Source: Thermoanaerobaculia bacterium
GTDB taxonomy: Bacteria > Acidobacteriota > Thermoanaerobaculia > Multivoradales > Multivoraceae
Reading direction: 5' to 3'
Assembly: GCA_963664405.1 (NCBI GenBank)
Contig: OY761158.1
Location: 2,624,001 to 2,688,000, forward strand
Length of the DNA: 64,000 nt
Position numbers and translations under genes: made by a program. The notes under the pieces are model-generated. The model searched no databases, was not told where the DNA came from, and saw only the letters and a list, made by a program, of their open reading frames with translations. Of this stretch, positions 18,893 through 60,307 are shown piece by piece. Position 1 is the stretch's first letter. Each line of letters opens with the position of its first letter.

Positions 18893-19197
18893 TCGTCGTC
18901 CTCCTCGTCGTTGGGGTTGTCGTAGTCGGCCAGTGCATGGGGAGTGACCGTGAGCTCCCGGATCCTGGGATCGTCGGGGAGCTGGACAGGCAGCGCGGGT
19001 AGGAGTCCCCGCTCGTGGCGCCGACGATCGAGGATGAGTCGCACCGCTTCGGGATGCGGGGTGAGAGTGAGCACGATAATCGATGGGAATGTTGGCCATT
19101 CTGAGCACGGTAGGTGAGGGAAGGGTGTTTGGTCCCTCAAGTAGTGTGCTCAAGACTAGGTCCGTCGGCATCATCCCCGCCGAAGGCGGGCCGTCGG

Positions 19198-20561
19198 GGA
19201 TCCGTCCCGAATGCTGTGGAAATTGAGAATGGCGTAACCTCCTAGTGGTCAAACACATCGCCGGTTAGGGCGAACGGAGGATTACGCCATGGTGGAGAAT
19301 ATCAACGAGGAAGGGGAAGCTGCACGCTTCCGTCAGGACATTCGTTCGTTGTTACGCGAGCGTGTTCGTGCGGCGATCGAGATCACACTCGAGGAAGAGC
19401 TGTCCGAGGCGCTGGGCTGCAGCGCCTACGAGCGTTCAGGCGAGCGTGCGGGCTATCGCAACGGCAAGCAGCGTCGTCTGATCACGACGGCGTGTGGGTC
19501 GAAGGAACTGGACATTCCACGAGGACGGCTAGTCGGCGAGGATGGGGCCAGCGTAGAGTTTCGCAGTGCGATCGTGCCGCGTTACGCTCGTCGTACGCAG
19601 GAGGTCGATGACGCGATCCTGGGTGCGTATCTGGCTGGCGCTAACAGCCGCCGGATCAAGAAGGCATTGGCTCCGCTGCTGGGTGAGGAGCACCTGTCCA
19701 AGAGCGCAGTTTCGCGTGTGGTGTCTCGGCTGAAGGAGCTTTTTGCTCGCTGGAGTGAGCGCGATCTGTCGGAGGAGTCCTACGTGCTTCTGTTTCTCGA
19801 TGGCTTTCACCTGAAGGTCCGCTTGGCCCGTCGAGTGGTCTCGGTACCGGTGCTGGTGGTGCTGGGTGTGACTCCGGACGGCACCAAGGTGCTGGTGGCC
19901 TTACGTTTAGCCGCGAGCGAGGCCGCCGAGCACTGGAAGTGGCTGATCGAGGATCTGAAGGCCCGAGGTCTTCAGGCTCCGCGCTACCTGGTCACGGATG
20001 GCCACAAAGGGCTGGCCGCGGCGCTGAAGGCTTGGCCTGAGGTCAAAGTCCAGCGCTGCGTCCAACACAAGTGGGAGAATCTGAAGAAACACTGCCCGGT
20101 GCACGCACACGACGAGCTGCGGCGTGACTGGCACTCGATCGTACGAGCCGAGGACGCGGCACAGGCCCGCAAGGCCTACGCGGCGTTCGTCACCAAGTGG
20201 TCGCGACTAGTCCCGGCGGTGGCTCGCAGCCTTGAGGAGGCAGGGTTCCAGCTACTGACCTTCTACGAGCTCCCCAAATCGCTGTGGAGTTCGGTGCGCA
20301 CGACCAACGCTCTGGAGAACCTGAACCGCGAGTTTCGTCGCCGCACTAAAACCCAGGGCTCCTTTGCCACCGAGGCTGCCGGCGTCACGCTCCTCTGGGG
20401 GCTCGTCGCCTTCGGGCAGATACACCTGCGAAGGATTAACGGCTACCGGGCGCTTCAGCTCCTGCTCGAGGTTGAGAGGGCCGCGTAAACGGTAGGATTT
20501 AGCAAAAGACGACTCGGAGGACTACGCCTGAACCCATTTCCACAAAAAACGGGACACATCC
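19198..20561 (+). mobile_element. IS256-family insertion sequence
   Basis: IRs GGATCCGTCCCGAATGCTGTGGAAAT and ATTTCCACAAAAAACGGGACACATCC; 8-bp TSD GCCGTCGG (19190-19197 and 20562-20569). Confidence 0.92.
19289..20488 (+). CDS. IS256/Mutator transposase
   Basis: GYRNG, LFLDG, VTDG, QRCVQH, TTNALENLNREFRRR. Confidence 0.95.
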   Translation: MVENINEEGEAARFRQDIRSLLRERVRAAIEITLEEELSEALGCSAYERSGERAGYRNGKQRRLITTACGSKELDIPRGRLVGEDGASVEFRSAIVPRYARRTQEVDDAILGAYLAGANSRRIKKALAPLLGEEHLSKSAVSRVVSRLKELFARWSERDLSEESYVLLFLDGFHLKVRLARRVVSVPVLVVLGVTPDGTKVLVALRLAASEAAEHWKWLIEDLKARGLQAPRYLVTDGHKGLAAALKAWPEVKVQRCVQHKWENLKKHCPVHAHDELRRDWHSIVRAEDAAQARKAYAAFVTKWSRLVPAVARSLEEAGFQLLTFYELPKSLWSSVRTTNALENLNREFRRRTKTQGSFATEAAGVTLLWGLVAFGQIHLRRINGYRALQLLLEVERAA

Positions 20562-22198
20562 GCCGTCGGGGCCTGACGCGCAGTCCATACTTGTTCTTTC
20601 GCTGATCACGCTGAACGAGGGCTGACACGCAGCGATGGGATGAACGGCACGCTATCTGATGGGCGATCGAGGCGGTTCGCCGAGCTTCCATCGCGCTTGG
20701 GCCCCTGGTTGCGCCCTCAGATACCTTGAACGGAACACCCATTCCCACCAGACAACGTGATCGGGTTTCCTCGAATCGCCATCAAATACTGTGAACAAGA
20801 CCGTCTGAGGCAAGTGGCAGCGAAACGCAGCTTCGGCTAAGTCCTTCAAAAGGCTACGCGACCATCACTTATCGTGATCGGACCGCCATCGATTATCGTG
20901 CTCACTCTCACGGGGATCCTTTTTCGAGGGCCTCGTCGATCGCCACTGCAAGCTCCCTGGGTCCACTCTCGGCAAGGAGCTCGAGGAGTCTGGCGACGGC
21001 ACTCGAGAGTCGTCTCTGCCGTCGGGCCAGCTCCCGCAGGAGCTCTTCGGCCTGGGGCACCGTACGCAGCAGGTAGTCCTGGCCGCGCTGTGTACGTGCC
21101 TCGCGTTTCTGTCGTTCCAGCTCTTCTAGGTGACGGGGGTCTTCGATGATCTGGCCCTTGTCCCAGGACCTTGTGTGCTCGGCGATGAGCTGCTCGCGAT
21201 CGAAGATGCGCACACGCTCCGGGTCTGCGGCGATCTGTAGCGAGCGGGCGATGCGATCATGCGGGATCGAGTAGCGATTCGCATCGAAGCTCAGGTAAGG
21301 AGTGCGCCGCGTGATCCGCTCGACCCATTCGTGGCAGGGGAAAGGCTGCGCCGGAAGGCTCACGAGATGAGAGCGCTCCTCGAGATAGGCCTGCTCGACG
21401 GTGCGACGCCGGTCCTGGGGCCACGGGCGCTTCATCGCTCGGTCGCGACACCACTCCAGAGCGTCCCGGTTCAGCGCTTCTCTGTCCCAGGTGCGACGCA
21501 GCGGAAAGAAGGAAGTTCTGACAAAACGAATGGCTCGTTCGACGCGACCTTTTTCATTTCCTCGTCTGGGAGCAACGGGCCTTGGATCAAAGCCGTAGAA
21601 GTCGGCGAGCTCGAGAAGCCGTGGATGAAAGCGAATGGCGCTGCGGCGCCGCTCGAGCACAGCGCTGCGCAGATTGTCGTAGAGGTGGATCTTGGCCAGA
21701 CCCTCAAAGAAGGAGAAGGCGAGGACATGCCCGGTCAGGAAGCTCGGCAGACGAGCGTCGTAGAAGAAGTGCAGAAAGAGAGCTCGCGAGTAGCTCAGCA
21801 CCATGACGAAGGCGTAGAGACGGCGCTCTCCGCCATCGACCTTTCGGGTGCCGAAGTGAGCCCAGTCCACCTGGGCCTGTTCGCCGGCAAGCGTACGGAG
21901 CACAAAGAAAGCCTCAGGCGCCTTGCGGGGGCGCAGGCCGAGCTCGGCAATGCAGTGGCGGAAGTGATCCTCCCCACCGGGATAGTCACGCTTCTTGACC
22001 ATCTCGTAGAGCACGCTCGCCGGCAGCTCCGGGTAGCGCTCAAAGACTTCCTGGATGAAGGGGACGAAGCGATCGACCATGGACGCTCGTCGCGGCGATC
22101 GAGGCCGGCTCAGCCCTTCGCGTCGAAGGACTCGAGTGACCGTCGAGTGATGGATTCCCAGATGGCGGGCGATCGTGTTGCGCCGCCAGCCCTCCGAC

Positions 22199-50367: not shown

Positions 50368-51417
50368 TCAGCGTGCGGAGGGTCGGTAAGGATCTGGAGT
50401 TCCTGGCTCGATCGGCGGCTCGGCCTGTAATGAGGTCAGATGCTCCGTGAGGATCTCGCTCATAGGCCAGCGAACCCAGAAGTGGCCGGCCGTTGCCTTG
50501 GTCAGGGGGTACTCCTCTTTCGGATCGCTGTACAGGTTGTAGAAGCGCGGAAAGTCGTAGGTCCTCTTAGCGTCCGTGCCGCGCTCAACTTCCTTGAACA
50601 TCATCTTCCAATTACGCCACTTCACGCCAAAGAGATCGTTTCCCACGTAAACGATCAAAGCATCTCGGTTCGACTTCTCTTTCTTCCCCATTAAGAAGTC
50701 TGATTGGTCGATACTGTCGATGGCGCGATCGGTCGGCACTTCCCCTCCGGCGAGGTTTGGGAAGGTAGCGAACATGTCGATCTCGTGCACGATCTCGTTG
50801 GAGACGGCTCCAGCTGGCACCATCCCTGGCCAGCGGATGATGAAGGGCACCCGTAGACTGCCTTCCAAACCGGTGAAGTAGCTGCCGCGCCAAGGCCCGC
50901 CCCATCCGTTGTGTCCCGGTAGCATCTCTGGCCCGTTGTCTGAGGTAAAGACGAAGATCGTCTCGTCCCGGATGCCGAGCTCGTCCAGAGTGTCCAGCAG
51001 TTCACCGGTATAGGCGTCAATCTGCATCAACACGTCCCCCCAGTCACCGTTGCCACTCTTGCCGCGAAACTCCTGACTCGGCACGACGGGCATGTGGGTC
51101 TGGGTGTACGGCAGGTACGCGAAGAAGGGTTTCCCCGCCCCCGCCTGTTCTCGGATGAACGCCTTCGCTCGGTCAGTAATCTCCCGGTCGATCTCGGGTC
51201 GCAGCTTCGAATCGAAAATCTTGACCTGCGTAGGCTCCTCGCCCTTCTTGCCGTCATAGACGTACTCAGGTACGACATAGGGGCTGAGCCCCTCGGCAAC
51301 GACTGCATTGAACTGGGCCTGGTCCGGTCACAGGCTCTCGTCGGTCGAATTCGGGATTCCGTACCATTCGTCGAAGCCCTGATCCGTTGGGAAACGCCCT
51401 TCGGTGTGGCCGAGGTG
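50368..51417 (-). pseudogene. Arylsulfatase lacking its N-terminus, with an in-frame TGA near 51327
   Basis: HLG...QGFDEWYG, PFFAY..H.P, FTSDNG, EGSLRVP; the CxPxR active-site region is missing. Confidence 0.85.
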
Positions 51418-51418
51418 T

Positions 51419-52131
51419 GCGCTCGGCTACCTCTCGCGCGAGGAGATCCAAGCACTCCTCGAAGCCCCCGATCGCTCCACACCGTCTGGACGGCGCGACG
51501 CGGTCCTCTTCGCCGTCCTCTACAACACCGGCGCACGGGTCTCGGAGATCACGGGCCTGCGCGTCTCCGACGTCCTCCTCGATCGCGCCTCCCTCCTACT
51601 GCACGGCAAAGGACGCAAAGAGCGCGTCGTCCCCCTCTGGAAATCCACCGCCAGTCAGCTGCGTGCGTGGCTATCACGCATCGAGCGGAGCCCTGACGCG
51701 CACGTCTTCCCGAATCGCACCGGCAAACGACTGTCGCGCTCCGGTGTCGAACACCGACTACGCGTCGCGGTCTCGACCGCCACGCTGCGATGTCCCTCTC
51801 TCGCCGCCAAACGGGTCTCGCCCCACACCCTGCGACATACCACCGCCATGCACCTGCTCCAGGCCGGGGCCGACATCACCGTCATCGCCCTGTGGCTTGG
51901 CCATGAAAGCACCGACACCACTCATCTCTATATCGAAGCCGATCTCAAGATGAAGCAAGACGCCCTCCAGCGCATCGATGACCCCGCACCCGCGCCGTTG
52001 CGCTTCCAGGCGTCTAATCGACTCCTCGCCTTCCTTGAGGCGCTCTGACTATGCCGAGTACTACTCCTCTCAAACGCCCGCAAATACGCGCTCCACCAGC
52101 TCAACTCCGCATAGTCAGGAACTCGGCATAG
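51419..52131 (+). mobile_element. RIT-type element remnant: 5'-truncated tyrosine recombinase (stop 52048) plus terminal repeats
   Basis: GARVSE, HGKGRKER, HTLRH, LGH, Y; C-terminus LLAFLEAL; 11-bp IR CTATGCCGAGT (52049-52059) and ACTCGGCATAG (52121-52131). Confidence 0.8.
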
Positions 52132-52246
52132 CACCCAGAAAGACGACAAAACCGCTCAGCGAGGACTTATGCAGTTCCAGCTATTGGTGGTCGAGTACCT
52201 AGGCCATTCGGCTTCGGCCTCACAGATCCGTGCTCGAAGATTTCCC

Positions 52247-55200
52247 TCACACGGCTCTTCTCGAAGGTAACCCAAGGCTAGCAAAGAGATCTCCCTGGAC
52301 GGTGGGTAGTCGAGGTCTCGGAAATGGAAATCGGCGCAGGACCTGCTTCTTGTAAGTCTCCCAGTTCAGCGACCGTCGGCTTCGACGACGAAGCCATCGG
52401 TACCAGATCCGGGTCACCTGGTAGTGAAACGAGGCCAAGGCCCGCTGGTTGTTCGGCAAACCGTAGTACCGGTAGTGACCGCGCAGCACGCTGCAGAGCC
52501 AGCGATGCTGCTCGGCCAGGGGCCGATGCATCCGGCGCCGGGCTTCCAGTCGGACCTCCCGCAGTTTCCGCGACAGCCGCTTCGACTGCGTCTTGCGCTT
52601 GCAGACGAATCGCCCATCCCGAGTCCACCCACAGTAGTGCGTGAGGCCCAGGAAGGCGAAGGTCGAGGGGCGACGCTGCCCGAGCCGCTGTCGGCGCAGG
52701 GCTGGAAGCCGACCGAATTCGATCAGCCGCGTCTTCTCCGAGTGGAGCTCCAGGGAAAACTCCCGAAGGCGTTTCTCCAAAGCCACCCGCAGTCTTTCTG
52801 CATCGTCCCGGTACTGAAAGCCCATCACGAGTCGAGTAGGGCGGGGGAATCTCACCCCCACCCCCTCACAGAACCGGACGTGAATGTCTCCACTCATCCG
52901 GCTCTTACCATCCAGCCTTCGCCTGAGACGACATGAAGCGCCAATGCGCAAAGAGATGTGGATCCCGGTCACGGACTTTCCGCACCCACTGATCCGATCT
53001 CCTTCGATGTCTCCGCAGACGTTTGTATTTCGCCCTCGCCCAGCGAGCCAGATGACGATCAAGATGGCAAAGGGACGGATAGAGCGCCGACTTGTAGTAC
53101 CGACCGTAGTAGTTGATCCAGCCCTGGACGATCGGATTGAACATCCGAGCCAGGTCGTCCACTTGCTTGTCGATCCGACAGTCGAGACGCCAGCCCCGAA
53201 TGGTCTGACGCATCGCTTTACCCGCCGCGTTGCTCACGCCGGGACTGAAGTTGACGAAGTACTTACCCCAGCGATTCTTCGATCGCCGAGCACGAAACGT
53301 GTAGCCCAAGAAGTCAAACTTCTCGTTCTCGTACGTCCCCCGTCGGTCGTCATCCTTGCAGTAGACGATCTTCGTCTTGCGCGGATGCAGCTCAAGCCCA
53401 CATGCCGCAAAGCGACCCGCGAGCTCCTGCTTCAGTCTCTGCGCTTGCTCCGCCGTTCGGCAATGGCAGATCGCATCGTCAGCAAACCTCTCGAACGGAA
53501 TGTCCGAGTGGTGACGCGCCATCCACCGGTCGAACGCATAGTGCAAGAAGAGGTTCGCCAGCAGTGGTGAAACCACCGACCCCTGGGGAGTCCCCCTCTC
53601 CCGAGACTCAAGAGTGCCATCCTTCAACTGAACGGGGGCACGGAGCCACCGCCCAATGTAGAGCAGCACCCAACGGCAATCCGTGTGGTAACGCACCGCC
53701 CGCAGCAGAAGATCGTGATCGATCGCGTCGAAAAAACCTTTGACATCGAGATCCAAAACCCAGTCGTAGCGCCAGCATCGCTGCCGCGCCACACCCAACG
53801 CACCAAGCGCTGATTTCCCGGGCCGGTACCCGTAGGAGTCTGGGTGGAAGTGTGTCTCCACCTCGGCCTCCAGGATCCTCTTCACGACCGTTTGCGCGAT
53901 CCGATCCGCCACGGTTGGCACACCCAGGGGACGCGTTCCACCGCCGGGCTTCGGGATCTCTACCCGCTTGACCGGCGGCGGCATGTAGCTCCCTGATGAC
54001 AGCCGATTCCACAGCTTGTACAGATTGTCTCTCAGACGCTCCTCGAAAGCTGCCAACGACTGCCCATCCACGCCTGCCGCGCCTCGGTTTGCCTTTACCC
54101 GCTTGTACGCCTCCCAAACCCACCGCTTGGGAATGCGAAAGGGCTTTGCCTTCGCCAAAGACTCCTCCCGTTGCCGGTTGGCCTCCGGACCCGGCTGGTT
54201 GGTGCCGCGCCTTCGCTCCGGCCCCATTACAGGACCTTCCTCACTACTACGCGCGACTCCGCCCCTGTGCCCCGCATCGGTACTCTCTTCCTCATGGGTC
54301 GACCACTTGGAATTCTCCCTTCGCATCGGGACGACAGGTTCCCACGTTCCACACGAGAGCCTGCATCGAGGTCACGCCGCCTTGCTGCCGGACGCCGCCT
54401 GGGCTGTAGGCAGGTAACACCCAGACTCCTCCCGGAGTAACGACTCCCTCCGGTTTTGACGTCGTCCCTACGCTTTCGACAGGTCATCGACGGTTCGCTT
54501 GCGCTCGTCTCCTCGATCCACACCTGACGGAATCTTGTCCCGCCTTTTCCAGCGACGCTCACCACCCGGGCTCTTGACCCGCGCAGCTCGTGGCGGTTTG
54601 AAGCCTGCACCTGCATGCCGGCTCCGAGGGGCCCACCCTCATCTCTCGTGTAGCAAGGCTGCTCTAGAACACCCAATTACATGAGTACTCCTTTCGCGCC
54701 GTCGTGGCGCACAGTCGTCAGCAAAGCGCACGATGGACACTCGTCCTCGCGCGTGTCGCCTACGCCACTGATGGACCCACAGATCCAGCACGTAGTGCAG
54801 AAAGACGTTCCCCAGCAACGGACTAATGCCCGCCCCCTGGGGCGTTCCCCTCGTCGTCTCTGTCCACTCCTTCTCCTCCACAACGCCGGCCCGTAGCCAC
54901 CCACGGATCAACCGCAGGATCCTCCGGTCGGCGATCCGATGCGCAAGCATCCGAAGCAACCACTCGTGGTCTACCGAGTCGAAAAAGCTCCGTATGTCCG
55001 CGTCCAGTACCCAGTTCACGTTCTGCGACATCACCGCCGTGTGAAACGCCTTCAGAGCATGGTGCGGGCTGCGGCCTGGCCGAAACCCGTACGAGAAGCC
55101 CAGAAAGTCCGCCTCGTACACCGCACTCAGCACCTCGGCCACCGCTCCCTGGACGATCTTGTCCTCCAGAGCCGGCACACCGAGAGGCCTTGATCCACCC

Positions 55201-55565
55201 TCCACCTTCGGTATCCACACCCGCCGTACCGGGCAGGCCCGGTATCGACCTCGATGGATCCGAGAGTGCAGTTCCTCGAGCTTGCGCTCCAGATCCTGCT
55301 CGTACTCTGAGACCGTCACTCCATCCACGCCCGCCGCCGCTTGGCGGCGAAGGCGACGAAATGACCGCTCCAAGGCTTCGGGTGTTACGTGATGCAACAG
55401 CGCCGTAAACCCCGCCCTGCGATCCCTCTTCGCTGCCTTGTTCACCCGAGTGAGACGATGCCTCCAGGCTACCCGGCTCTGCGTCCGGACTTGGGACCTC
55501 TCACCCGGAATCCCTTCGAGCTGGCCGCTTCCCTCCACGCGTCTCGTTTCCTTCGACGGTTTCAT
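52247..55565 (-). CDS. ltrA: Intron A reverse transcriptase/maturase, split by intron B (55565-54713 + 52830-52247)
   Basis: AAGVDG, RPLGVP, GTPQG, RFADD|FVMGF joins in frame (479 codons); no endonuclease domain. Confidence 0.9.
52831..54712 (-). mobile_element. Group II intron B (class D-like) inserted at the FADD codons of the intron A RT
   Basis: 5' GTGCG at 54712; D5 GAGCCGGATGAGTGGAGACATTCACGTCCGGTTC; 3' CTACTCGAC; EBS1 is complementary to the 5' exon. Confidence 0.93.
52905..54326 (-). CDS. ltrA: Intron B reverse transcriptase/maturase (true start probably near 54157)
   Basis: KPFRIPK..EAYKRVKANRGAAGVDG, GTPQG, RFADD, FDFLGYTF, GWINYY. Confidence 0.93.
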   Translation of the reverse strand: MRRENSKWSTHEEESTDAGHRGGVARSSEEGPVMGPERRRGTNQPGPEANRQREESLAKAKPFRIPKRWVWEAYKRVKANRGAAGVDGQSLAAFEERLRDNLYKLWNRLSSGSYMPPPVKRVEIPKPGGGTRPLGVPTVADRIAQTVVKRILEAEVETHFHPDSYGYRPGKSALGALGVARQRCWRYDWVLDLDVKGFFDAIDHDLLLRAVRYHTDCRWVLLYIGRWLRAPVQLKDGTLESRERGTPQGSVVSPLLANLFLHYAFDRWMARHHSDIPFERFADDAICHCRTAEQAQRLKQELAGRFAACGLELHPRKTKIVYCKDDDRRGTYENEKFDFLGYTFRARRSKNRWGKYFVNFSPGVSNAAGKAMRQTIRGWRLDCRIDKQVDDLARMFNPIVQGWINYYGRYYKSALYPSLCHLDRHLARWARAKYKRLRRHRRRSDQWVRKVRDRDPHLFAHWRFMSSQAKAGW

Positions 55566-55569
55566 CAGT

Positions 55570-57602
55570 GTCGGGTCGGAGGAGGCGCCCGCGGTTACCC
55601 GCAGGCTGGCCTCCGTCCGCCGCTCAAACCGGACGTGCAGATTTCCCGCATCCGGCTTTCACGAAGACGCCCCCTTGGGGGAAGAATCGATGGAAGGAAT
55701 CAGACCGACAAGGTTCACCAAGCCCATCTCGCCGTACAGCGTGGCCTTGGGCAGGCTGTCCCACCCTTTACAGCGCCAGCGCTTGTGACGGTGCGACCAG
55801 AGGCGCCGCACCACCCATGGGTCGAGCTGGTGAAAGAGCCGTCGGACGTGGGCACGTTTGTAGTAGTGCCCCCATCCACGCAGGACCGGATTCAGCTGTT
55901 CGATCAGCTGCTCGGTGGTAACCGGTGCCTTCCGCCGCGTCCGACCGCGAATCTGCTGCTTGAAGTGCTGGATCGACTTCTGAGTCGGGTAGGCATACAG
56001 GGCGCCCGAAAGGGCACCGCTGCGGATCTTCGCCCGCGGCAGCCGAAGCTGCTTGCCGAGCTTGATCTTGTACCCGAGAAACTCGAAACCATGCTTCACG
56101 TGCACGATCCGCGTCTTCTGCGGATTGATGGAGACACCGAGCCGCTCCAAGATCCTCGTCGCCACAGCCAAGGCTTTACGAGCCTCAGCCGCGGTCGAAG
56201 AAGTGAGGACCCAGTCGTCGGCATACCGCGTGAGTCGAAACCCTCTGCGTCGCATCTCCTGATCAAAAGGAGTCAGAAGAATGTTGCTCAGCAAGGGCGA
56301 TACGACCCCGCCCTGCGGAGTCCCACGCTCAGTCGGAAACAGGCGACCCTCCGCGAAGCTCCCGGCCTCGAGTACGGAGCGCAAAAGCCTCAGCACCCGA
56401 CCGTCGGAAACCCGTTGGCTCACGAGCATCAACAGCTTCTCGTGGTCCACGCTCCCGAAGAAATCCCTCAGGTCCGCGTCCACGATCCACTCCTTGCCCG
56501 ATTGGATCTCCTTCCAAACCTTGCGCAGAGCCCCGTGTTGGGATCGCCCTCGACGGTATCCGAAGCTGGCAGCATCGAATACCGGCTCGAAGATCGGCTC
56601 CAACCGGTTCAGCATCGCTTGCTGGCAGACACGGTCATAGACCGTGGGGATGCCCAACGTGCGGTACTTCCCCGGCTGGCCCGCCTTCGGGATCCGCTTC
56701 TGCCTCACGGGTTGCGGTCGGTACTCATCACGACACAGCTCCTCGTGAAGTCTGTCGAGGTGCTCAGAGAGCCCCTCGGAGAACTCCTCGATGCTCTGGC
56801 CGTCGATGCCGCCCGCGCCCCGATTGGACTTGACGCGTTCCCAGGCGATCTCCAGGTTCTTGCGCTTGTACACCTTGTCGATCAGAGAGTGAATCTTCCT
56901 CTCTCCCGACGGGTTGATCCAGTCAGCCAGTCTCCTCGGCTGTCGATGTTCGGGTTTTTCACTCATGGAACTATCCAGCCTCGACCGCCTTACTCGCTCG
57001 CCTTCCTTCTCTCCCCTACCGTCTTCGCCGGCCGCCTTCCCCAGCTCACACAGCTGCCGCTCCTCGCGGTCACACGGCTTTCACCGCGCTTGAAGTACTA
57101 CTCGACCGTCCGACTGCTCGCCGCGCATCCCTTCCCACTTCGCTTGCGCTTATAGGGTCCGTTACCGCGGTGCCACCCGCAGACACGACGAGCTCTCCCA
57201 GGGTCACACGCTGATCTTCCGTACCGTGCCGTCCGCAAACACCTTGGTGCGGTGGGTGGATGAAAAATGCCTTCGCCTCCATACTGCAGGCTCGACCTTG
57301 TCCCACCTTTGGCCGACCGGTTCGTCTTCGGGGTGGCCCCCATCGACTACGGCCCGGTACTTCTCCGCAAGCCCTTCGGATCCCACCTCGCGGTGGACAC
57401 CCTGCCCTCCGAAGTCTCACGAGAGCTGGCTCCAGGTCACCCTTGGCTGTTTCCGGGTTTCCCCTTCGTGCCCGTTTAGAGCTCTCCATACCTGTCTCCC
57501 ACTTCGGCCAGCGAGGCATTACCCCCGCTTTTGGATACGACGCCCCTCATCCGAGCGCCGGAGGGACTCAAACCCTCCCGATCAACGCGCTGCCTGGCGC
57601 GC
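55570..57602 (-). mobile_element. Group II intron C inserted into the RNA scaffold of intron A
   Basis: 5' GCGCG at 57602 (or GTGCG at 57604); D5 AAGCCGGATGCGGGAAATCTGCACGTCCGGTTTG; 3' CCCGAC at 55570. Confidence 0.88.
55659..56966 (-). CDS. ltrA: Intron C reverse transcriptase/maturase
   Basis: HSLIDKVY, GAGGIDG, GTPQGG, RYADD, FEFLGY, LRGWGHYY. Confidence 0.94.
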   Translation of the reverse strand: MSEKPEHRQPRRLADWINPSGERKIHSLIDKVYKRKNLEIAWERVKSNRGAGGIDGQSIEEFSEGLSEHLDRLHEELCRDEYRPQPVRQKRIPKAGQPGKYRTLGIPTVYDRVCQQAMLNRLEPIFEPVFDAASFGYRRGRSQHGALRKVWKEIQSGKEWIVDADLRDFFGSVDHEKLLMLVSQRVSDGRVLRLLRSVLEAGSFAEGRLFPTERGTPQGGVVSPLLSNILLTPFDQEMRRRGFRLTRYADDWVLTSSTAAEARKALAVATRILERLGVSINPQKTRIVHVKHGFEFLGYKIKLGKQLRLPRAKIRSGALSGALYAYPTQKSIQHFKQQIRGRTRRKAPVTTEQLIEQLNPVLRGWGHYYKRAHVRRLFHQLDPWVVRRLWSHRHKRWRCKGWDSLPKATLYGEMGLVNLVGLIPSIDSSPKGASS

Positions 57603-58065
57603 ACTATCAGCCAGTCCGACTCCCGACCTCAGCTCAGCGCCGCGCTGTGGTTCTCCCTCGCGCGACGCCCCCGACGGGGACCAGCCCGTCGGACCCGGTC
57701 GGGTCTCCTGGGTTCCGATGACGACCTTTCGTACGTGACACAGGCCACGACCCCGGTGGAGCGACACCGCCTCGCGCTAGCGGCGATGCACATGCTGCCT
57801 TCATGCTCACGAAAACACTCGGCCTCCACGACTTCGCTTTCTTTCGGGGCTGACTCCCTGCACCCTGCACGACTCCTGTCTACGCTTCGAACACGACGTT
57901 ACCGGCGCGCCCGCAAGACTCGGTTCTCACCTGCCCGCTACGGCTTTGGTGAAAGAGGACTTGCACCTCCATGTCATACATCAGCTTTGCCCAGCACACT
58001 CGTGGTCCGCCAGAAACTACGACACACCGGCGGCGTTCCCACGCCCACGCAGCGAGCAAGGCCAG

Positions 58066-60231: not shown

Positions 60232-60307
60232 TGGTAGGCCGTGAGGGGATCGAACCCCCGACCCGCGGATTAAAAGTCCGCCGCTCTACCAACTGAGCTA
60301 ACGGCCC
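60232..60307 (-). tRNA. tRNA-Lys (TTT)
   Basis: GGGCCGTTAGCTCAG...CTTTTAA...GGTTCGATCCCCTCACGGCCTACCA. Confidence 0.97.

Follow-up and report, generated by a model that had tools for sequence, protein, structure and literature searches.

How does a group II intron in a bacterial chromosome come to hold two other introns, one in the gene for its protein and one in its RNA part, and what becomes of its own activity once they are there? The question is raised by a locus in a 64,000-nt stretch of the genome of a Thermoanaerobaculia bacterium (GCA_963664405.1, contig OY761158.1, positions 2,624,001 to 2,688,000 of the forward strand; hereafter, the window). Positions 52190..57999 of the window, on the minus strand throughout, contain an outer group II intron (A), an inner intron (B) within the reverse transcriptase (RT) open reading frame (ORF) of A, and a second inner intron (C) just upstream of the start codon of that ORF. 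We conclude with high confidence that the three introns form a real nest in a bacterial chromosome, which arose when two intron-hunting lineages entered A by site-specific retrohoming. The genome is a single contig of 6.78 Mb, and we take its host to be a bacterium because bacterial models of the small and large ribosomal subunit RNAs were the top matches in their clans.

Anatomy of the nested introns

The whole nest measures 5810 nt, to which A alone contributes 1895 nt. Three matches to domains V and VI (D5/D6; RF00029) reached the gathering score, at 52190-52259 (45 bits), 52831-52906 (64.7 bits), and 55570-55660 (42.2 bits), and the Rfam families that describe the upstream domains (D1-D4) differ from one intron to the next. 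A matches RF02005 (group-II-D1D4-6; 57742-57963, 143 bits) and B matches RF01999 (54522-54640, 108 bits); the match of C to RF02001 (57208-57397) is weak, its 30.9 bits lying just below the cut-off of 32. The RTs of A, B, and C are mutually 33-42% identical. Rfam and Pfam thus bear out a preliminary description of this DNA, which had placed three 5' ends, three D5/D6 ends, and three distinct RTs here and assigned the introns to different lineages. The two DNA junctions that it named, GACGACT|TCGTG and GATAGT|ACTGAT (a vertical bar marks the point of insertion), are present to the base, as are the lengths of 1882 nt for B and 2033 nt for C.

The guests divide A into three segments. The 5' segment (57603..57999, 397 nt) holds the D1-D3 RNA, within the RF02005 match, and the 5' strand of the domain-IV stem, with a D3-like hairpin and a helix (H1) predicted. 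The middle segment (54713..55569) consists of 4 nt and, from the ATG at 55565, the N-terminal 284 RT codons; this N-terminal piece (54713-55565) matches positions 1-155 of the 205 of the Pfam model RVT_1 and ends in ..VRFADD. The 3' segment (52190..52830) contains the C-terminal 194 codons, with the stop codon inside D5, followed by the remainder of the D5/D6 at 52190-52259. Its coding part (52250-52830) resumes in frame as ..FVMGFQYRDD.., and, as had been claimed for precise removal of B, the joined ORF runs for 478 codons without a stop or a frameshift.

An uninterrupted relative supports this reconstruction. The preliminary description had proposed looking for uninterrupted copies of A, and one was found at locus L014 of G005, a genome from the same family. 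This intron matches RF02005 with 182 bits, its RT reads ..VRYADDFIVGFERQEEAERF.., and it is colinear with A across both insertion sites; its RT is 58% identical to the N-terminal piece of A and 48% identical to the C-terminal piece. In addition, contigs from two DNA metagenomes bridge 52830>54713 and 55569>57603/57605. We read these contigs as relatives of A lacking B or lacking C, that is, as probable empty alleles, not as products of splicing.

The outer boundaries of A were located in two ways. A starts with GTGTG at 57999, a 5' end that is fixed by a second A-type copy in the same genome (A', at 3.05 Mb), in which similarity begins at the same base next to an unrelated flank sharing only ..CACGA|. 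The 3' end was placed from the D6 alignment alone, and from these predicted ends the ligated exons of A would read CACGA|CACCAATAG. The class of the introns was approached in two ways. A reading of A as a class C (IIC) intron, inserted just behind a terminator-type hairpin, finds little support, since A is preceded by no more than a weak 5-bp stem and A' by no stem. A comparison with solved RT structures (PDB) gave class C RTs as the top match for all three proteins, without discrimination.

B is present in three copies and C in four, as repeats of 1.9-2.0 kb that exceed the span of short reads, and an assembler might conceivably have produced a nest by misjoining repeated elements. This explanation has to contend with a genome assembled as a single 6.78 Mb contig and with the recurrence of the junctions elsewhere, that of the A 5' part with C in an independent metagenome contig (97% identity) and that of B with the A 3' part at the 3.05 Mb locus. 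Both insertions are, moreover, precise to the base and restore, when taken out, a reading frame and a conserved motif. We consider an assembly artefact very improbable.

The sites of the two inner introns

B (54712..52831, 1882 nt, 5' GTGCG) begins one base after the FADD codons of the A RT. Its ORF (52905-54326) has 473 codons, with a likely start at the ATG at 54227 that would give a protein of 440 amino acids; Pfam detects RVT_1 (2e-39) and the maturase domain GIIM (1e-16) in it and no endonuclease domain. Domains V and VI occupy 52831-52906. Within B positions 260-281, the loop of a hairpin contains AGTCGT (54440..54445), which pairs with the last six bases of the 5' exon, ACGACT, as expected of exon-binding site 1 (EBS1). 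All three genomic copies of B are 100% identical over the full 1882 nt, with exact ends. One lies in A after ..TTTGCTGACGACT|, and two lie in copies of C after ..TATGCCGACGACT|, which are the YADD codons of C itself, so that the target is FADD plus one nucleotide in A and YADD plus one nucleotide in C. B has been mobile very recently.

To see whether this site is characteristic of the lineage, we scanned one genome per species with the B protein and kept 79 loci from 577 relatives, locating the 5' ends heuristically. Of the 74 candidate ends with a flank, 30 fall right after [YF]ADD codons plus one base, in the same phase as in the window, in Acidobacteriota, Actinomycetota, Nitrospira, Chloroflexi, Bacillota, and Proteobacteria. 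For 27 of these 30, what precedes the intron is the coding sequence of an RT N-terminus stopping exactly at YADD, the hosts being A-like (57-61% identical to the L014 RT) or C-like (up to 73%). Many phyla contain relatives that share this target and are 56-77% identical to B in protein. They include a 67%-identical relative on a plasmid of the cultured species Sinorhizobium meliloti, which follows ..CGCTATGCGGACGATT| in a gene annotated as reverse transcriptase. An identification of the S. meliloti plasmid relatives with RmInt1 was dropped, since the one inspected proved to be another YADD-site intron.

The hairpin loop of B can be identified as EBS1 because it co-varies with the 5' exon across the family: CTTCGT occurs with ..ACGAAG|, GACTTC with ..GAAGTC|, TTTTAT with ..ATAAAA|, and GGTTGTGG with ..CCACAACC|. 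In our own reading of the pairing, two G residues of the window EBS1 face the third positions of both Asp codons, with the consequence that GAC and GAT should both be accepted. Of the 44 other B-family ends, those that the heuristic has not misplaced follow motifs such as WYLDE|, KYEEV|, and WAxDI|.

Two further features of these families were observed. At L048, L109, and L222, B-family introns stand head to tail as tandem copies, a 3' end being followed directly by the next 5' GTG. Sub-lineages in both families (L032-L036, L059, L068, L070, L074, and L094 for B; L149-L169 for C) lie after conserved coding motifs (WYLDE|, KYEEV|, WAxDI|, W.xDETY|) that resemble putative transposase genes, and their EBS1 loops match their exons.

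The target of B is that of a described lineage (PMC2504315). Tourasse and Kolsto (2008) describe four related introns of ~1.8 kb without an endonuclease domain, B.th.I3 of Bacillus thuringiensis, M.a.I5 of Methanosarcina acetivorans, UA.I3 of an uncultured archaeon, and P.l.I2 of Photorhabdus luminescens, whose intron-binding sites IBS1 and IBS2 are the RYADD codons and which create twintrons in RT ORFs. B resembles them in length (1882 nt), in a protein without an endonuclease domain, in a 5' exon made of RT active-site codons (..GCTGACGACT| for B, AGGTATGCTGATGACT in PMC2504315), and in giving rise to twintrons when it enters another group II intron's RT ORF. We therefore place B in this YADD-homing lineage as a new member, the named introns having been compared with it by description only (target, length, and domains); a member would also be expected to show 58-67% nucleotide identity to them along its whole length. 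What B adds is a new copy in a new bacterial host, in which the same intron occupies two unrelated RT lineages (A and C) within one genome.

C (57602..55570, 2033 nt, 5' GCGCG) ends 4 nt before the ATG of A. It encodes a protein of 435 amino acids (55659-56966; RVT_1 6e-42, GIIM 3e-19), and its domains V and VI lie at 55570-55660. The ends of C are known to the base from filled and empty targets. C has four genomic copies, one in A, one in A', and two in members of D, an intron family (Rfam D1D4-4) in which one copy has an RT ORF and several derivatives of ~805 nt have none. D occurs with two flank variants, each found once filled and once empty: ..GGCTCGAAGT|ACTGATGAAGCC, empty at 2592542 and filled at 2891252, and ..GGCTTGTATT|ACTGA.GAAGCC, empty at 6214739 and filled at 6396937 (the empty targets lie in the D copies at 2592086-2592889, L010, and 6214283-6216270, L013). 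These pairs fix both ends of C without target duplication. The D copy at 6396003-6401199 (G000:C1) is nested serially, ORF-less D carrying C and C carrying B in its YADD codons. This D copy also holds a ~480-nt repeat that has many copies in the genome.

Where C lies in A corrects one point of the preliminary description, which had C interrupting the ribozyme core. The site is past the D1-D3 RNA and the D3-like hairpin, with a helix strand on one side and a small hairpin on the other, and its position after the D3-like hairpin and 4 nt before the ATG places it in domain IV, within the stem-loop around the start codon. The same location recurs across the family. A metagenome scan with the C protein gave 80 loci at 65-100% identity, 23 of them without a usable flank. 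A 5' flank of 25 nt or more was available for 57 copies, of which 39 occupy a site of the form ..(G/A)AGTC(G/A)G(A/C)..N6..(C/T)(A/G)TAGT | A(C/G)(C/T)GA.GAAG followed by a small hairpin, 14 lie in the W.xDETY coding motif, which resembles a putative transposase gene, and 4 are elsewhere. A same-strand RT ORF (A-like, B-like at 56-73% identity, or more distant) starts ~60-250 nt past the end of C in 28 of the 50 loci with at least 300 nt of downstream sequence. When 20 loci were scanned with Rfam, a host D1-D4 match (types -6, -3, -4, and -2) ended shortly before the 5' end of C in 13, two of the seven misses having less than 80 nt upstream, and host D5/D6 lay further downstream in 9.

The structure at the C site was approached through 34 reconstructed target sites. 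A hairpin of at least 4 bp just past the site is present in 29. An RNAalifold consensus fold of the 34 sites returned no structure, and a cruder and only moderately convincing helix count was used instead. In 14 sites, with 13 different sequences, bases -16..-5 can form a helix of 6-8 bp with a stretch 30-70 nt downstream (CTGGCTG/CGGCCAG in A, GGGGCTC/GAGCCCT in D), although the mean longest helix over all sites, 5.35 bp, is only slightly above the 4.73 bp of shuffled sequences, and the helix is accordingly supported reasonably but not strongly. Also tentative is the EBS1 proposed for C, AGTATG (57280..57285); an older copy of C (2.89 Mb) has AGTTTG at this place and sits at CGAAGT|.

Searches of the source genome found no copy of B or C outside another intron, and some copies show recombination. 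The 3.05 Mb locus (G000:C1:3046586-3050756, L011) consists of an A' 5' part (93% identical to A), C positions 1-1391 up to the YADD codons, B (100%), and an A' 3' part (87.5%), which looks clearly like the product of recombination between B in C and B in A' of a four-intron nest. The window locus might itself have arisen by homologous recombination or gene conversion between pre-existing nests and not by two separate homings into this A. Besides the 3.05 Mb locus, such an origin would draw support from the C copies carrying B at 3.05 and 6.40 Mb, which are identical over C positions 1-1391, and from a 4717-nt metagenome contig (L142), a 97% relative in which an A 5' part and C (with a GCGCG start) are joined to a D 3' part with the D RT and D5/D6. 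That contig represents a recombinant outer intron or else an assembly error spanning a 2-kb repeat. The window C, however, differs at 14 positions, position 2 among them, from the two copies 99% identical to it, and is the only one without B, and both guests sit at the canonical sites of their lineages, for which direct homing is the simplest route. We therefore regard an origin of the window nest by recombination as unlikely and retain separate retrohoming of B and C into A.

The two guest lineages can also invade each other. The domain IV of B itself (54245-54260, minus strand) contains an unoccupied C-type target, ..GGAGTCGCGCGTAGT|AGTGAGGAAGG.., with the ATG in the hairpin that follows, and C-type introns occupy that domain-IV site of B-type hosts at two metagenome loci (L180 and L200). 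Serial nesting is also seen in another phylum, on a 3711-nt contig of an Acidimicrobiales metagenome-assembled genome (L086), where the YADD codons of a C-type intron (RT 73% identical to that of C) are followed by a B-type intron and the C-type intron itself lies in a host intron (D1D4-3, 110 bits). It is quite possible, and we suggest it tentatively, that B and C represent two widespread lineages whose main way of life is to parasitize other group II introns, potentially including each other, and that shared inner introns may act as portable homology through which recombination deletes or reshuffles halves of unrelated outer introns. The suggestion of portable homology comes from the 3.05 Mb locus and from L142, in which the ribozyme 5' half of A is joined to the protein and 3' half of D.

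Proposed order of splicing and the state of the outer intron

We propose the following sequence of events for the nest. Intron A, which lacks an endonuclease domain, would have received both guests by site-specific retrohoming. B would recognize DNA encoding the RT active site, its EBS1 (AGUCGU) pairing with A-Y-G-A-Y-U such that G-C or G-U pairs accept either Asp codon, and would insert one base past the YADD or FADD codons in the RT genes of other introns. C would recognize a conserved stem-loop module of domain IV near the start of its host (..AGTCGGA..N6..TAGT|AC.GA.GAAG plus the hairpin). Transcription of the nest would come from upstream. B and C, each of which carries its own intact protein gene, would have their proteins made from those ORFs and each splice its own RNA; the A protein would be completed only from RNA without B, and removal of C would rebuild the domain-IV module around the start codon of A.

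Of the two dependencies that had been proposed, that of A on B holds. The frame of A enters B and stops 24 codons after FADD, and the later RT motifs and the maturase part lie beyond, so a full A protein requires prior removal of B; this dependency is open to experiment. The claim that C must splice before A can fold goes too far, because the catalytic core of A is uninterrupted and because domain IV tolerates a whole ORF, which means that the core can in principle fold with C in place. What C may affect is binding of the protein. The stem-loop around the start codon in domain IV is the main protein-binding site in the introns that have been studied, such as Ll.LtrB. If A is similar, its domain-IV protein-binding module would be whole only once C is gone, and A would be hostage to both guests, needing removal of B for its protein and of C for this module.

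Several observations weigh against a nest that works in this manner, in addition to the modest helix statistics at the C site. The C-terminal piece of A alone has no Pfam match at E <= 0.01, and hence no maturase match. No joint produced by splicing was found in the contigs of two RNA libraries (X17 and X20), which contained only short pieces of B and C, and in which DNA may be present. Intron ends were called heuristically in related loci, and some of those 44 B-family ends lie in the wrong place. The candidate EBS1 of C pairs at six of six positions with TGTATT| and at only four of six with the GATAGT| of A, and the window C starts with GCGCG (U2 to C), whereas the other three genomic copies start with GTGCG; from these two features the window C may splice poorly or not at all. 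Starts of this kind may, with some uncertainty, be tolerated, since several C-family members with different flanks also begin G-C (GCG(C/T)G in L147, L176, L178, L193, L206-L208, and L142; heuristic ends). A shifted 5' splice site is also conceivable, because an exon ending in GT recreates GTGCG 2 nt upstream in G-C copies. The ORF of the window C is the sole uninterrupted full-length C ORF in the genome, the others being cut by B, deleted, or truncated.

An alternative is that the nest is an inert relic, in which A is a dead landing pad, no ordered cascade takes place, and only B, perhaps with C, is alive. The source genome contains no uninterrupted A-type RT gene, both A-type copies having been invaded, and A' has lost D5/D6 and its middle part. 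A and A' are only 87-93% alike, whereas the copies of B are identical, the 5' end of the window C departs from the consensus as noted, and Methanosarcina nests have been viewed as perpetual homing sites (PMC4424553). Set against these points, the RNA parts of A have good scores, with 143 bits over D1-D4 and 45 bits over D5/D6, its joined ORF has neither stop nor frameshift, and the ratio of nonsynonymous to synonymous divergence (dN/dS) between A and A' is 0.33 over the 140 C-terminal codons after B, a small sample in which the constraint may predate the invasions. We hold an inert relic to be possible but somewhat improbable. Within the preferred reading of a nest assembled by retrohoming, A may nevertheless be dead and perhaps chiefly a landing pad.

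Relation to known nests and surroundings of the locus

The preliminary description had called it unusual for two different lineages to strike one host. This was an overstatement: the YADD site (PMC2504315) and the domain-IV site are the habitual targets of the two lineages and thus not unusual accidents, and published nests contain as many as five introns. What lies next to a bacterial group II intron is most often another group II intron (PMC7306698). The closest parallel to C is in Thermosynechococcus elongatus, where the ORF-less intron TeI3 (F3) lies in domain IV of TeI4 (F1), between the first two ATGs of its ORF (Mohr, Ghanem and Lambowitz 2010, PMC2882425). C shares with the TeI3/TeI4 twintrons a location in host domain IV at the start of the host ORF, inner copies that are near-identical within diverged outer introns, and a lineage that also targets insertion-sequence genes. 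It differs in encoding its own 435-amino-acid RT/maturase, where TeI3 is ORF-less and uses the protein of the outer intron; in being unrelated to its hosts, which belong to at least four Rfam D1-D4 types; and in inserting 4 nt upstream of the host ATG instead of between two ATGs. We found no description of an ORF-bearing, domain-IV-homing lineage like that of C in the literature searched, a search to which most subscription papers were external.

Methanosarcina acetivorans offers the nearest parallel to the nest as a whole, with nests of up to five introns formed by repeated homing and subject to recombinational loss (PMC4424553, PMC1712230). The window nest agrees with these in repeated site-specific homing into introns, in the lack of a host gene in the flanking exons, and in the loss of copies by homologous recombination, represented here by the 3.05 Mb locus. 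The differences are a bacterial host with three introns as opposed to an archaeal one with up to five, and the division of the guests within one host, where B lies in the coding sequence for the protein and C in the RNA part.

Little here is new in principle, and the additional points of the locus are modest: the presence of two unrelated guests in a single bacterial host, the reciprocity of targets between the guest lineages, and a GC 5' end. The locus provides a bacterial counterpart of the archaeal nested-intron arrays in which filled and empty sites, a sister locus with a recombinational deletion, and an uninterrupted relative can all be compared, and it combines both known ways of living on another intron, at the RT active-site codons and at the domain-IV start region. 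Its value is as material for work on splicing order and target recognition, through the wobble-tolerant EBS1 of B and the GC 5' end of C. It is also of practical value for annotation, because annotation pipelines miss the outer introns of nests (PMC8919778).

Outside the nest, A begins 67 nt past a methyltransferase-like ORF, has an integrase gene on its other side, and does not lie in a housekeeping gene. The flanks (50371-52048 and 60232-60307) contain an ORF of the phage-integrase family (51404-52045, plus strand), a C-terminal sulfatase fragment (50371-51093, minus strand), and a tRNA-Lys(UUU), which together suggest an integrated element or island. Elsewhere in the window, a ~1.85 kb repeat occupies positions 19060-20910. 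Its ends match a ~480-nt element that the genome contains at more than 15 places, and the two are probably an insertion sequence and miniature forms derived from it.

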